Source of the DNA: Escherichia phage vB_EcoM_Lutter
Strand: one strand, 5' to 3'
Sequence record: NC_054924.1
DNA: 64,000 bases
Below are positions 2,199 to 41,762 of the stretch, piece by piece. A program made the position numbers and the translations under genes. Under the pieces are notes generated by a model, which had not been told where the DNA came from, ran no database searches, and was given only the letters and a program-made list of their open reading frames with translations. Every line of letters starts with the position of its first letter. Position 1 is the stretch's first letter.

Positions 2199-3053
2199 TC
2201 ACAATGAAGAAAATTCTTTAACTAAAGCCTGTAATGAAGCCTCTATTGGATATCCGTTCTTAACTAACATTTTCCTAAACATCACATGTTTAGGACGATT
2301 ATATGATATCCACAATTCATACAATTTATCTTTATTATCCCAATGATAGCCTTTTCGTCGAGATGCTATATGAGCTTTTCTAATCTCCGGATTTTTCCAA
2401 CTAGCAGCTACTGAATTTGATATAGCTATTTTATATTCAGGTTTTGATAAAGCAGCACGAACAGCCTTTTGGTGTTTAATTTTATTTTCTTCGTTATTAA
2501 ACCATTCCCTTGAAGCCATTGAAATTTTTTGTTTTGTTTTAAAACTATTTAATCTTTCTTTGTTATCTTTCCTATTTTTTGCTACTGAAAAATATTTTAA
2601 TGCCCTTTCTCTAGCAGCATTTCTATTTTGCGGATTTGAATAATATTGTTGAAGCCTTTTTGATATTGTGTCACTTACATCTTGTTTTATAAAACTATAT
2701 TCAGCAGCTATTAAATCAACTTCGGCTAAAGATAAATTTTTATATGTTTTTCCTGACATCATTCTATTTAAAGCATTTAGCATTTTTCCATTTTTACCTT
2801 TTGCTAATAAGAAATGTGCTTTAAAATGATTAAAATGACTTAAATTAACTAAATTCCATGTAGATTTTAAATATTCAGGAAATATTGATTTAGGAAGCAC
2901 GTGATGTGCTTCCGTTTTACCTGGAGTTTTAACAGTTGAATTCATAGAAATAAAATTAATGTAAGACTTGGCGTCTTCTTCACTCAACGCTAATTTTTCA
3001 ACTAATTCCTTTATTAAAAATTCATCATTAATGTCAAGTTTAAAATTCTTCAC
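2199..3053 (-). CDS. free-standing HNH homing endonuclease with NUMOD-like repeats (possible GTG start)
   Basis: 284 aa; HHVLPKS...NLVNLSHFNH HNH motif; repeated basic NPxxRxAxxxA-type modules; sits between genes 46 and 47. Confidence 0.65.
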   Translation of the reverse strand: MKNFKLDINDEFLIKELVEKLALSEEDAKSYINFISMNSTVKTPGKTEAHHVLPKSIFPEYLKSTWNLVNLSHFNHFKAHFLLAKGKNGKMLNALNRMMSGKTYKNLSLAEVDLIAAEYSFIKQDVSDTISKRLQQYYSNPQNRNAARERALKYFSVAKNRKDNKERLNSFKTKQKISMASREWFNNEENKIKHQKAVRAALSKPEYKIAISNSVAASWKNPEIRKAHIASRRKGYHWDNKDKLYELWISYNRPKHVMFRKMLVKNGYPIEASLQALVKEFSSL

Positions 3054-3258
3054 AAAAGATTCCTTTTAATGTATCTTTTAGACCATTCTATCATATCATC
3101 ATAATCTAAAAAGTATTCATCAAATTCAGCCATGCAAACAACACCTTGTGCTGTTTTTGATGTAATATAAATTATTCCAACATATCTAGAATCTTCTTCG
3201 GTATAATCAATGTTTGCTATGAATTCATCATTAATGTCAAATGTCGAAAACTTCACAG
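3018..3258. repeat. direct repeat pair bracketing a ~200-bp small-ORF cassette next to the HNH gene
   Basis: aattcatcattaatgtcaa exact at 3019-3037 and 3222-3240, plus shared cttcac; both copies hold a TGA/GTG stop-start junction. Confidence 0.6.
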
Positions 3259-3313
3259 TATGCATCCTTAATACAAGATACGGCCATATCTCGCAATGAT
3301 TTAGGTGTGTCAT
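3050..3313 (-). CDS. hypothetical small protein; start uncertain (possibly internal Met, MHTVKFSTFDINDEF)
   Basis: ORF overlaps the 3237-3500 ORF in another frame; N-terminus duplicated at the HNH gene start. Confidence 0.3.
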   Translation of the reverse strand: MTHLNHCEIWPYLVLRMHTVKFSTFDINDEFIANIDYTEEDSRYVGIIYITSKTAQGVVCMAEFDEYFLDYDDMIEWSKRYIKRNLL

Positions 3314-3500
3314 TATCTAAAATGTTGAAGTTAAAAGATACAGCCCAATCTGTACAGACCGTAACTTTTTTAATACAATTATCTTCAACCTCTAGCGGTT
3401 CAAACCAATATTCAATAATTTCTTTATGCCCAATATCATCTTTTACTTCACATTCAAAATGCTGACTCATCATAACATTTTTAAATTCATCAAAAGTCAT
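3237..3500 (-). CDS. hypothetical acidic small protein (87 aa)
   Basis: ORF immediately downstream of gene 47 on minus strand. Confidence 0.45.
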   Translation of the reverse strand: MTFDEFKNVMMSQHFECEVKDDIGHKEIIEYWFEPLEVEDNCIKKVTVCTDWAVSFNFNILDNDTPKSLRDMAVSCIKDAYCEVFDI

Positions 3501-4516
3501 TGTGTTGCCTCTACATATAACTGATTTGCATATTGAATAAGTGCTTCACGGTCAGAATCAGTGATGTCTGGAATTGCATTAATGTATTCTTCCATCAACG
3601 TCTGAAGAGATTGAACTTCAACTTCTTCACTGTCATCTGACTCGACAGAGTTATCAATCTTTGACACAACTCGTAATGAATGCACAACTTTTTCTAGTTC
3701 AGATTCGAACTTCGTCAGATTTTTGTCTACTTCAGTTACTATAACACGTACTGATAGATTTGTAAAATCTTTATAGTCAATTTTTCCTTTAAATGGATAA
3801 TGAATTCTACGATGCCAGGTAGTATTGTTTGGAATAAATTCCATTCGTTCTGTTTCTGTATCAAACATCCAGAACCCACGAGGGTCATTCTCGTCACCTG
3901 CAGTTAGTGTCCATGGTGTCCCAATATATCTGACGTTTGCAGCCTCAGAGATAGTATGGAAGTGACCAGACCACACCTCTTTATAAGTCTTAAGGAAATC
4001 AGGTTCAAGACCGTGAGATTTCATTCCTTTATAAAAATAAAATCCATTCAGTTCCCAGTGACCAACACAAAAAGAAGCAGATGAAGTTTTGATGTGCTCA
4101 AGAATTTCACCAGTATTTTCTTCGCACATCCAAGGAATTAAATCAATTAAACATCCGTCAAAATCGACTGTAGTAGGCTTATCATATACTTTAACATTAG
4201 GATATTTAGCCAAAAGCTCAGTAGAAGCATTTGGATGCATTACATTTTTGTAGTGGAGATCGTGATTTCCTACAATAGTATGTAATGTGATTCCAGCGTC
4301 ATCAAGCATTTGAACTATTTCACGGGCAAACTCCATAGTTTTATGTGTGATTGCTTTTCGCACATCAAAAATATCACCATATTGAATCCATACAGTAATT
4401 CCATTTTTCTTAGAATATTCTATCGCTTGCTTAATTCCATCAATTTGAATACCGCGAATCCACTCATCATCAGCTTTAACGCCTAAATGCCAATCACCCA
4501 AGTTTAGTATTTTCAT
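3497..4516 (-). CDS. 47: recombination endonuclease subunit gp47 (Mre11/SbcD-like phosphoesterase)
   Basis: 339 aa; calcineurin-like motifs LGDWHLG, GDIFD, GNHD, GHWE, SGHFH; T4 gp47 length. Confidence 0.92.
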   Translation of the reverse strand: MKILNLGDWHLGVKADDEWIRGIQIDGIKQAIEYSKKNGITVWIQYGDIFDVRKAITHKTMEFAREIVQMLDDAGITLHTIVGNHDLHYKNVMHPNASTELLAKYPNVKVYDKPTTVDFDGCLIDLIPWMCEENTGEILEHIKTSSASFCVGHWELNGFYFYKGMKSHGLEPDFLKTYKEVWSGHFHTISEAANVRYIGTPWTLTAGDENDPRGFWMFDTETERMEFIPNNTTWHRRIHYPFKGKIDYKDFTNLSVRVIVTEVDKNLTKFESELEKVVHSLRVVSKIDNSVESDDSEEVEVQSLQTLMEEYINAIPDITDSDREALIQYANQLYVEATQ

Positions 4517-5117
4517 GGTGTCTTTTCCATCCTAATTTAGCTGCTTTTGAAACCAGTTCTTTAATTTTTCCTTTTGTCCATTCAGGACCAGGAGGTTCAT
4601 GACATAACAATTGCTTAACTCCGTTATTATACCATTTTTTACCTTTATTATGTGATGAAGCTTTAAATTTATTTGACCTTCCTTTTACATAACCTTCTGG
4701 AATATAAGGCAAAAAGGCAGATTTTCCTGTTAATGGATCATGTGAATGTATATTTCCTTTACAATTATGAGAACCATATAATGGATGATTTTGTCCTTTA
4801 TTATCTCTTCCAAATGAACCTTTTGGAGCAGCATATGACATATTAAAGAATAATGGATTTTTAACTGCATCATGCAATCGTTGATAATATAACTCGCATT
4901 TAATAGCTTCTTCACGTGTATCAAATTCAGCTAAAATGCATGAATCAAATAAGTGAGGATTATCTAAAAGCTCTTTATTATAAATTTTCTTATACTTTTT
5001 AGATAAAACTGAACCATGATATCCAGCTAAATGCCTATCTAAAGACGTAGATCCAATATAAAAAGGAGGAAGTTTATCTCCACTATATATTGTTAAATAA
5101 GTTATATATTTTTTCAT
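4494..5117 (-). CDS. free-standing GIY-YIG homing endonuclease (seg-like)
   Basis: 207 aa; N-terminal YITYLTIYSG...FYIGST (GIY-YIG), C-terminal Gly/Lys/His-rich NUMOD-like region; overlaps end of gene 47. Confidence 0.65.
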   Translation of the reverse strand: MKKYITYLTIYSGDKLPPFYIGSTSLDRHLAGYHGSVLSKKYKKIYNKELLDNPHLFDSCILAEFDTREEAIKCELYYQRLHDAVKNPLFFNMSYAAPKGSFGRDNKGQNHPLYGSHNCKGNIHSHDPLTGKSAFLPYIPEGYVKGRSNKFKASSHNKGKKWYNNGVKQLLCHEPPGPEWTKGKIKELVSKAAKLGWKRHHENTKLG

Positions 5118-5277
5118 ATATCAAGAACCGTCATTGAAATGCAAAATAAAATTAATGAAATAAATCCATCTGGAGTGCTAAAGAACCCAATCCAACATGC
5201 TCTAGTGAACAAATAAAACGCTAGAAAAAGTATCACATATCCAAGAAATATCATTATATCAAACTCCGTATAAAGCT

Positions 5278-40873: not shown

Positions 40874-40947
40874 TCTCCGCGGCAGGATTTGAACCTGCGA
40901 CATTCTGCTCCCAAAGCAGACGCTCTACCAAACTGAGCTACACGGAG
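40874..40947 (-). tRNA. tRNA-Pro (anticodon UGG)
   Basis: Acceptor CUCCGUG/CGCGGAG, anticodon loop UUUGGGA, T-loop GGUUCAAAUCC; no encoded CCA. Confidence 0.8.
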
Positions 40948-40957
40948 TAAATTAAAT

Positions 40958-41031
40958 TGGAGCGGATAATGAGAATCGAACTCACATCATCAGATTGGAA
41001 GTCTGAGGTAATGCCATTATACGATATCCGC
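40958..41031 (-). tRNA. tRNA-Gly (anticodon UCC)
   Basis: Acceptor GCGGAUA/UAUCCGC, anticodon loop CUUCCAA, CCA encoded. Confidence 0.85.
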
Positions 41032-41036
41032 AAATT

Positions 41037-41123
41037 TGGTGCGAGAAGTGGGACTCGAACCCACAAGGAAATCATTCCGCAGCATTTTAAGTGCTGTGCC
41101 TTTACCAATTTGACCATTCTCGC
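41037..41123 (-). tRNA. tRNA-Leu (anticodon UAA), long variable arm
   Basis: Acceptor GCGAGAA/UUCUCGC, anticodon loop CUUAAAA, CCA encoded. Confidence 0.85.
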
Positions 41124-41129
41124 GCTATA

Positions 41130-41762
41130 TTATTTATTACGTGAAAAAGACTGTTCTATCAATTCTGGACACTTTCGTTCTATCCATTTTCTAGCTTTTT
41201 GTGGGCTTATACCTATTATTTTAGCAGCTTTACTAACCCATCCAAATTTAGAATAATCGATTTTAACTAATTCTTCGTAAATTTCATCAGTTAAAATCTT
41301 TTCATTAATATTTACCAGTAAATGATATAATTTATTATCATTAGCAATTTTAATGAATCTTTTATAGTTTCCGCCTTTACTTAAACCTAATGAAGTAATT
41401 GCAGATGATATAGTAGCCGAATTTAATAGTGCGTTTAAAATTTCTTCATCACTAACATTATAACGCTTTTTATTATTTTTAATATTTTTACCAGCAAAAG
41501 TATCAGTTTGCGAATGGCAGTTTGGACATAATAATCTTAAATTTGATTTAAGATGATTTTTGTTATTTCCATCAATATGGTCTAATTGCAGAACAATATG
41601 CTTATTTTGCCATTTTGAAATTTTACAAATTGCACACTCATATGGAAAAATATTTTCTTTTATTATTTTGTCTTTCAGCTTTCCTGTACTAAAATTTGGA
41701 TGTTTTCCTTCAAAAATTTCAGCTAATTTAGTATCCATAATATGATTCCCAATTATTAACAA
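41130..41762 (-). CDS. HNH homing endonuclease at head of tRNA cluster
   Basis: 210 aa; CAIC...LQLDHIDGNNKNH...LLCPNCH HNH/zinc motif. Confidence 0.65.
   Translation of the reverse strand: MLIIGNHIMDTKLAEIFEGKHPNFSTGKLKDKIIKENIFPYECAICKISKWQNKHIVLQLDHIDGNNKNHLKSNLRLLCPNCHSQTDTFAGKNIKNNKKRYNVSDEEILNALLNSATISSAITSLGLSKGGNYKRFIKIANDNKLYHLLVNINEKILTDEIYEELVKIDYSKFGWVSKAAKIIGISPQKARKWIERKCPELIEQSFSRNK

Follow-up and report, generated by a model that had tools for sequence, protein, structure and literature searches.

The window, a 64,000-nucleotide (nt) stretch of Escherichia phage vB_EcoM_Lutter (NC_054924.1), very probably carries five homing endonuclease genes of the free-standing kind, none of which is found in T4. 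Judged by their sequences, these would be one Mob-type HNH gene, two Seg-type GIY-YIG genes, one F-TflIV-like HNH gene, and one gene of an unnamed family with a putative PacI-like nuclease core that lacks the catalytic histidine. The five open reading frames (ORFs) were located on the minus strand at 2199-3053 (ORF1), 4494-5117 (ORF2), 12806-13627 (ORF3), 40252-40737 (ORF4), and 41130-41762 (ORF5), exactly where an earlier reading of the letters alone (the sequence-only reading) had placed them, and all five were free-standing as it had claimed. Local blastn showed that the window was a segment of a T4-like (Tequatrovirus) genome, collinear throughout with T4 (NC_000866) from ~32.8 to 95.4 kb, and every one of the five ORFs fell on a clean break within DNA that was 86-99% identical to T4. 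Megablast of positions 1-14500 and 38500-43500 matched more than 1,100 phage records, of which ~500 were at 95-99% identity and none was identical; many Tequatrovirus records were ~96-97% identical to the window. The ORFs appear to be real genes and not chance ORFs, because near-identical copies of each were present in 24-69 phage records. All of the T4 endonuclease genes of this segment (mobB, mobC, I-TevII in the nrdD intron, mobD, segB, and segC) were missing, and the number of endonuclease genes common to the window and T4 over 64 kb was zero. No family match to a sixth endonuclease gene was found in the other non-T4 segments (8064-8323, 14749-15130, 23557-24518, 27621-28186, 32405-34111, and 38685-39204), which encode DUF7200, an antitoxin-like protein, a membrane protein, a y05I-like factor, a zinc-binding protein, DenV, internal proteins, and unknowns. 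Because these inserts matched no endonuclease family, five was the complete count of endonuclease genes in the window by the screens used.

The sequence-only reading had called ORF1, ORF4, and ORF5 HNH genes and ORF2 and ORF3 GIY-YIG genes, and had named profile searches among the checks. By sequence, four of the five fit homing endonuclease genes of known kinds, with ORF1 and ORF5 in the HNH class and ORF2 and ORF3 in the GIY-YIG class. ORF4 was the exception and could not be demonstrated to be an HNH gene, since it had no profile match and an invariant arginine in place of the histidine. The profile searches themselves lent weak support. No match to a Pfam catalytic domain reached the curated cut-off in any of the five ORFs, and the sole pass was NUMOD3 in ORF3; in addition, ORF3 and its relatives lacked the classical conserved arginine of GIY-YIG enzymes at the aligned position. 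Both of these results weigh against an assignment of all five ORFs as homing endonucleases. Pfam returned nothing for ORF1, ORF4, or the catalytic domain of ORF3, NCBIfam returned nothing for ORF1, ORF2, and ORF4, and PDB sequence searches with ORF1, ORF2, ORF3, and ORF4 gave nothing relevant. Support came from PHROGs, from homology to T4 and T5 enzymes, and from structure. The word-index search for homologues yielded few relatives (15 for ORF4, 7 for ORF1, and 5 for ORF3), so that the alignments behind the two structure models were shallow.

ORF1 (2199..3053, minus strand) is a free-standing gene of the Mob-type HNH kind, with 284 codons and a GTG start, located between gene 46 and 46.1. BLASTP aligned the protein with T4 MobD (1.6e-17, 30% identity), MobB (1e-7), and MobC (9e-7), and residues E48, H50, H51, P54, N67, H76, and H80, corresponding to the H-N-H motif, were invariant in the alignment with these three proteins. 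ORF1 also matched phrog_655, 'homing endonuclease', at 2e-45, and T6 carries the same 855-nt coding sequence (CDS), which is annotated 'homing endonuclease'. No HNH-family match to ORF1 was found in Pfam, NCBIfam, or PDB, and the Mob lineage evidently lies outside the coverage of PF01844. In T4, gene 46 starts with GTG AAG AAT TTT AAA CTT, the GTG overlapping the stop codon of 46.1. The same six codons begin ORF1 in the window, and the GTG of ORF1 overlaps the 46.1 stop (GTGA). Gene 46 (501..2183, minus strand), which encodes an SbcC-like recombination nuclease subunit, restarts from a new ATG located 15 nt past the ORF1 stop, reading ATG AAA TCA TTT AAA CTT. Two copies of the 9-base-pair (bp) repeat TTTAAACTT were found on the minus strand, the right copy (2166..2174) forming codons 4-6 of the re-created gene 46 start and the left copy (3036-3044) lying inside codons 4-6 of ORF1. 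Homology with T4 broke exactly at 2174 and 3036, the edges of the ORF1 insert. The ORF1 copy of T2 was degenerate, being split into CDSs of 85 and 204 amino acids, and the copy in the window was intact.

ORF2 (4494..5117, minus strand) encodes 207 amino acids between 47.1 and gene 47 and is probably a free-standing homing endonuclease gene of the Seg GIY-YIG type. The Pfam GIY-YIG profile matched over positions 2-74 of 78 with E (expectation value) 3.1e-4 and 21.4 bits against a cut-off of 22.6, and the elements TIY...FYIGS...DRH...E...FFN were present in the sequence. ORF2 matched phrog_10820 at 8e-94 and phrog_314 at 1.7e-17, and hhalign aligned it with the catalytic domain of the ORF3 family with a probability of 92.7% and E 4e-7. 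Homologues of ORF2 in phrog_10820 and in several RefSeq records are labelled 'HNH endonuclease'. This label was rejected because the domain matches point to GIY-YIG, and it is likely an annotation error that propagates among the homologues. The ATG of ORF2 is the start codon of gene 47 in T4 and overlaps the stop codon of 47.1 (ATGA), and the new start of gene 47 lies 23 nt ahead of the ORF2 stop, so that the 3' end of ORF2 and gene 47 overlap by 23 nt. The short direct repeat ATGAAAA flanks the insert. Genome alignment revealed four synonymous changes in codons 3-6 of gene 47 (4499..4510, minus strand), with ATA CTA AAC TTG for ATT TTA AAT TTA. These changes were present in all three ORF2 carriers and in none of the five non-carriers among the window, T4, T6, T2, F26, fPS-90, FJ1, and KIT03. 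Codons 3-6 of gene 47 are a candidate for an immunity variant of the endonuclease target, or for a co-converted tract.

ORF3 (12806..13627, minus strand), located between gene 49 and nrdD, encodes 273 amino acids, in which a predicted GIY-YIG catalytic domain is followed by NUMOD3 repeats. The NUMOD3 match scored 33.1 bits against the Pfam cut-off of 20.4, and the modelled fold was closest to the catalytic domain of I-TevI in the predicted structure. The ATG of ORF3 overlaps the stop codon of gene 49 (ATGA), which is the site of the nrdD start in T4, and nrdD restarts 10 nt before the ORF3 stop, giving an overlap of 10 nt between nrdD and the 3' end of ORF3. Linked to ORF3 was a divergent 5' allele of nrdD covering ~225 bp and the first ~75 codons (12590..12815, minus strand), with a sharp boundary near 12590. 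This allele was 60-78% identical to four genomes without ORF3 and 98-100% identical to three carriers. Exactly 48 records contained it, and by organism they broke down just as the 48 records of ORF3 did. The nrdD gene of the window (10998-12815) contains no intron, the T4 group I intron with I-TevII being absent. mobC was absent as well, and nrdG and nrdD therefore overlap directly. In F26 and T6, another endonuclease gene was found between nrdG and nrdD, and the nrdD of F26 was also interrupted.

The first three genes are promoter-less cassettes, and each begins precisely where another gene used to start: ORF1 at gene 46, ORF2 at gene 47, and ORF3 at nrdD. Each cassette inherits the translational coupling of the displaced gene to the upstream stop codon, and the new start of that gene is found within the 3' end of the cassette or shortly behind it. 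The overlaps with neighbouring stop or start codons that the sequence-only reading had noticed for several genes were thus found for these three. As for the neighbours, it had correctly placed ORF3 between 49 and nrdD; its positions for ORF1 (between 46 and 47) and ORF2 (between 47 and a-gt) needed refinement, since ORF1 lies between 46 and 46.1, and ORF2 lies between 47 and 47.1 and does not adjoin a-gt. Its general picture of insertion at the boundaries of conserved genes also needs to be amended, because ORF1-ORF3 sit on former start codons and ORF4 and ORF5 replace 60-64 nt of tRNA-Thr and tRNA-Gln. The T4 late promoter TATAAATA was not found within 300 bp upstream of any of the five genes or anywhere in 1-27000, and its overall number in the window (13 against 10.8 expected) was at chance level. 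The lack of a late promoter near any of the genes fits the description of several T4 seg and mob genes as promoter-less cassettes (PMC2988022).

Homing by free-standing endonucleases, together with co-conversion and marker exclusion, has been described previously (PMC2988022, PMC2330249, PMC10448857). Following the T4 seg/mob paradigm, each enzyme would cut the DNA of a co-infecting relative near the empty site, the break would be repaired by recombination from the genome carrying the gene, and the gene would thereby be copied in along with its flanking sequence. The variants linked to ORF2 and ORF3 are what would be expected either of a cleavage-resistant target or of a co-conversion tract. 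They could also simply mirror the donor lineage instead of selected immunity, a possibility that weighs against the homing model.

The tRNA array at the other end of the window (39910..41123, minus strand) was of the T2L type according to ARAGORN, the comparison with T2, and a published description (PMC2330249), in the order Arg, Asn, Tyr, Met, ORF4, Ser, Pro, Gly, Leu, and ORF5. ORF4 and ORF5 overlap no neighbouring gene, with 8 nt between the ORF4 stop codon and the downstream tRNA-Met and 6 nt between the ORF5 stop codon and the downstream tRNA-Leu. Phage slur14 has Met-Thr-Ser in the corresponding part of the array, and compared with it, the 517-bp ORF4 cassette (40244..40760, minus strand) replaces the 3' 60 nt of tRNA-Thr and a 1-nt spacer. 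Homology with slur14 broke at 40243 and 40761, and a 16-nt remnant of the tRNA-Thr 5' end remained at 40761-40776. T2 and T4 have tRNA-Gln after Leu, and the 618-bp ORF5 cassette (41127..41744, minus strand) replaces 64 nt of the body of that gene, with homology breaks at 41126 and 41745 and leftovers of 7 nt at the 5' side and 2 nt at the 3' side. The 7-nt 5' remnant, TGGGAAT (41745-41751), is likely the ribosome-binding site of ORF5. The insertion of ORF4 and ORF5 thus destroyed the tRNA-Thr and tRNA-Gln genes. In Shigella phage CM8, a GIY-YIG gene of the Seg type was found in the tRNA-Pro slot, so that different relatives have different tRNA genes replaced, Thr and Gln in the window and Pro in CM8.

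ORF5 (41130..41762, minus strand) encodes a predicted zinc-finger HNH endonuclease with a C-terminal helix-turn-helix. Its start is likely the ATG at 41738, giving 202 amino acids, since residue 9 is the first to be aligned in the PHROG match and the annotated length in relatives is 609 nt. The motif CAIC...DHIDGN...N...CPNCH, in sequence CAIC...LDHIDGNNKNHLKSNLRLLCPNCH, corresponds to the CxxC...DH...N...CxxCH core. The match to Pfam HNH (PF01844) was below the cut-off (17.3 bits against 21.4, E 5e-3), and ORF5 matched phrog_14736, 'HNH endonuclease', at 6e-124. It was also similar to T5 hegA, which is annotated as HNH endonuclease F-TflIV, with 34.7% identity over 84% of the length (5e-15). 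The helix-turn-helix of ORF5 was related to the tails of ORF4 and of a Seg enzyme. SegB has been reported to recognise a conserved tRNA-gene sequence (PMC2330249), and, to judge from the related tails, tRNA-gene sequence may likewise be what ORF4, ORF5, and the array's Seg enzymes read. The tRNA-Asn of the window (39990-40064) was identical to that of T2 at 75 of 75 positions, and the block from tRNA-Arg through Asn, Tyr, and Met to ORF4 should accordingly be cut by SegB and excluded in a mixed infection with T4.

ORF4 (40252..40737, minus strand), with a likely ATG at 40734 and 160 amino acids, is the intact form of 'trna.1' of phage T2L (record AJ880101), which was described as an ORF of unknown function by Brok-Volchanskaya et al. 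2008 (PMC2330249). Residues ~1-80 form a putative PacI-like, His-less beta-beta-alpha-metal core, followed by a tail with a NUMOD3-like part plus a helix-turn-helix. No nuclease match to ORF4 was found in Pfam, NCBIfam, or PDB sequences, its PHROG is labelled 'unknown function', and its sequence did not qualify it as a canonical HNH enzyme. A profile search with the ORF4 family collected 7,245 cluster representatives (clustering at 50% identity), and 5,249 had E values below 1e-10. The core of this family had no Pfam family. Nine positions (W30, W34, M52, R54, D57, G59, Y61, N65, and N74) were invariant in an alignment of 39 sequences, with which a separate alignment of 16 sequences agreed. 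Family members carry NUMOD1, NUMOD3, I-TevI DNA-binding, Sigma70_r4, or HTH_23 modules, and this module set, as read from the domain matches, is that of a homing endonuclease. Some members contained 2-4 tandem copies of the core, with four matched stretches in one member of 455 amino acids. Full-length relatives of ORF4 (39-51% identity) were found in the tRNA arrays of three other genera at other positions, between Gln and Arg in Salmonella phage S16, between Asn and Tyr in Aeromonas phage 31.2, and between Tyr and Lys in Klebsiella phage KpV477.

In the AlphaFold2 (AF2) model of ORF4 (predicted local distance difference test score, pLDDT, 87), a beta-beta-alpha element was formed by residues 50-54, 66-70, and 71-80. 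A Foldseek search of the model against PDB returned nothing below E 0.1; PacI was at the top in probability and in template modelling (TM) score, and many helix-turn-helix DNA binders were among the structural neighbours. Two family profiles compared with PDB found nothing relevant except a weak match of the tail to the I-TevI DNA-binding domain (E 0.057). The hhalign alignment of the ORF4 family with PacI was non-significant (E 0.65) and informative in its register alone, in which R54, Y61, and N65 fell on R93, Y100, and N104 of PacI, and N74 then on N113. PacI is a His-Me finger enzyme without the histidine, whose role is taken by a loop tyrosine (PMC5714182, PMC4081073). Over its C-terminal ~70 residues, ORF4 shares homology (1e-15) with the tail of the GIY-YIG enzyme that CM8 encodes in its tRNA-Pro slot; this enzyme passed the Pfam GIY-YIG cut-off with 27 bits, and the ORF4 core occupies the place of its GIY-YIG domain. 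Taken together, these results make a PacI-type nuclease without the histidine the probable identity of ORF4. A broader proposal, put forward tentatively and at somewhat less than an even chance, is that ORF4 belongs to a large unnamed class of homing endonucleases with an invariant tyrosine in a PacI-like core, which would have invaded tRNA genes in at least four T4-like genera and exchanged its tail with the GIY-YIG Seg and HNH enzymes of the same tRNA arrays.

Three observations weigh against nuclease activity of ORF4. Where a catalytic histidine would be expected, at the end of beta-strand 1, the protein has R54, which was invariant in the family; the Cys4 zinc sites are missing, there being just C51, C53, and C68, none of them conserved in the family; and in crosses between T4 and T2L, trna.1 was almost wholly lost, being retained in 0.4% of the progeny (PMC2330249). 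ORF4 might then be no nuclease but a DNA-binding protein whose scaffold is a degenerate His-Me finger, as in the Smad MH1 domain, and which has been retained in the tRNA arrays for regulation or for some other function; or it might be a decaying relic. We regard this explanation as less likely than not. Besides the invariant arginine and the lack of preferential inheritance of T2L trna.1, it is favored by the failure of all nuclease profiles to match, by the helix-turn-helix DNA binders among the structural neighbours, and by the loss of activity documented for some His-Me groups (PMC5714182). However, the nine invariant positions of the core, including R54, D57, Y61, N65, and N74, argue for an active site that has been kept and not for decay, and the spacing of R, Y, N, and N equals that of PacI, in which tyrosine replaces the histidine. 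The NUMOD1, NUMOD3, and I-TevI DNA-binding modules in the family and the position of the core in place of a GIY-YIG domain in a protein with the same tail also speak for a nuclease. Finally, the T2 copy of ORF4 has lost the conserved N-terminal ~30 residues through two 2-bp deletions, whereas the window copy is intact, and trna.1 would have shown no drive in the published crosses because the T2 copy was frameshifted.

More than 1,100 records hold the flanks of the five genes, and every gene was in single copy and in one place per record. The sequence-only reading had supposed that the insertions were strain-specific, and their sporadic distribution agreed with this. ORF1 was found in 69 phage records (including T6, T2, RB51, and PP01), ORF2 in 67 (fPS-90 and teqhad), ORF3 in 48 (fPS-90, FJ1, and F26), ORF4 in 24 (T2), and ORF5 in 62 (slur14 and CM8), 51 of these at 99% identity or above. 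Most carriers of ORF1, ORF2, and ORF5 were at least 99% identical to the window. Empty sites were seen in the comparison genomes, and ORF1-ORF3 assort independently across the eight-genome panel. All three were present in the window and in F26, and none in T4; T6 and KIT03 carried ORF1 only, fPS-90 carried ORF2 and ORF3, FJ1 carried ORF1 and ORF3, and T2 had a broken ORF1 without ORF2 and ORF3. By analogy with other elements of this kind, the frameshifted ORF1 and ORF4 of T2 would represent the decay expected late in their life cycle.

Such decay bears on the question of whether these genes, taken as real endonuclease genes, are retained mainly for the benefit of the phage, through exclusion of the markers of competitors and promotion of amplification or exchange of tRNA and anti-defence loci. 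Segmental amplification driven by SegB has been demonstrated for tRNA-Tyr and anti-defence genes (PMC13096335), 'HEG islands' (HEG, homing endonuclease gene) have been proposed (PMC10448857), and ORF4 and ORF5 are located in the tRNA array by tRNA-Tyr. On the other side, the two tRNA genes destroyed by ORF4 and ORF5 would be a cost, the T2 copies are decaying as selfish elements should, and the sequence offers nothing to separate benefit from selfish spread; retention mainly for phage benefit seems rather unlikely. Ordinary illegitimate recombination or deletion at short repeats, a moron-like gain and loss in which the enzymes take no part, would fit the direct repeats TTTAAACTT at ORF1 and ATGAAAA at ORF2 and the many regional mosaic blocks that do not adjoin endonuclease genes, but it is very improbable as the explanation of presence and absence, given that all five inserts encode nuclease-type proteins and the other inserts of the window do not, that carriers are 98-100% identical across otherwise mosaic backgrounds, and that related enzymes of the same phage group have been proven experimentally to home (PMC2330249, PMC2988022).

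The five positions had also been taken to mark the recombination hot spots of this genome. As a hypothesis this has some plausibility and agrees with Barth et al. 2023 (PMC10448857). The identity profile also showed strong mosaic blocks with no endonuclease gene nearby, for example in a-gt at 5500-5900 and in segments near 9000 and 9600. In a-gt, the stretches 5500-5900 and 6100-6400 were 70-85% identical to T4, T6, fPS-90, and FJ1, with no adjoining endonuclease gene; the former was 94-100% identical to T2, F26, and KIT03, and the latter was 97-100% identical to T2 and KIT03 only.

Several other segments differed from T4. The slot of T4 mobD (23552-24537) encodes a 153-amino acid protein (PHROG 'membrane protein') and a 173-amino acid y05I-like putative transcription factor (Pfam T4_y05I_N and T4_y05I_C), with no match to an endonuclease family. 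A 69-amino acid ORF at 14747-14956, in place of T4 49.2 and 49.3, matched a PHROG antitoxin of a toxin-antitoxin system at 1.3e-39. Two ORFs without a Pfam match flank the small-RNA region (rnaC and rnaD) by the tRNA array, one of 157 amino acids at 38690-39163 that is absent from T4 (phrog_2280) and one of 114 amino acids at 39549-39893 whose counterpart in CM8 is the 'trna.2 protein'.

Marker exclusion and a large share of the mosaicism of T-even phages are generally attributed to free-standing homing endonucleases, so five more in a T4 relative were to be expected and add little alone. The finding is real, was largely read correctly from the letters, and is ordinary for this phage group, the ORF4 family being its only moderately novel part. 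The absence of any endonuclease gene in common with T4 over 64 kb shows fast turnover of the repertoire, and the capture of start codons together with the linked variants gives concrete candidate target sites. If active, the ORF4 family would be a new catalytic type among the families of homing endonucleases and would bear on the reshuffling of phage tRNA sets, which counter host anticodon nucleases.

In comparison with known systems, ORF1 is closest to T4 MobD, with which it aligned over the full length including the C-terminal module and shares the motif E-x-HH...N-L-V-x-L...H...AH. Like the T4 mob genes, it is a promoter-less intergenic cassette; unlike them, it has taken over the GTG start of gene 46. 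Its site is 46.1/46 instead of nrdC.11/mobD.1, and the mobD slot of the window holds non-endonuclease genes. MobB, MobC, and MobD are themselves putative enzymes (PMC2988022). ORF2 and ORF3 resemble the T4 Seg proteins and I-TevI in having a putative GIY...YIG domain at the N-terminus, in which the Glu and Asn are conserved, and ORF3 also in its NUMOD3 repeats, but their similarity to SegB and SegC was barely detectable (E 0.01-0.02) and their insertion sites are unlike those of any T4 seg gene. An insert adjoining a conserved gene with a linked variant tract is also known from SegF with gene 56 and SegG with gene 32 (PMC2988022). ORF5 has the same CxxC...DH...N...CxxCH core as F-TflIV of T5, and both genes are located in a tRNA gene cluster; they differ in that T5 belongs to another phage family and in that ORF5 replaced tRNA-Gln and has a tail related to those of ORF4 and a Seg enzyme. 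ORF4 shares its genomic niche with T4 SegB and SegB-like enzymes and has a tail homologous to that of the CM8 enzyme, but its catalytic domain is unlike that of SegB, and the window, without segB, holds the T2L-type allele that SegB cleaves and excludes (PMC2330249). The closest parallel to the predicted ORF4 core is PacI of His-Me finger group 20, with the same spacing of R93, Y100, N104, and N113. ORF4 differs from it in the missing Cys4 zinc sites and in the lack of significant sequence similarity, and PacI is a restriction enzyme, whereas ORF4 is predicted to combine a monomeric nuclease core with a helix-turn-helix tail in the context of a mobile gene.

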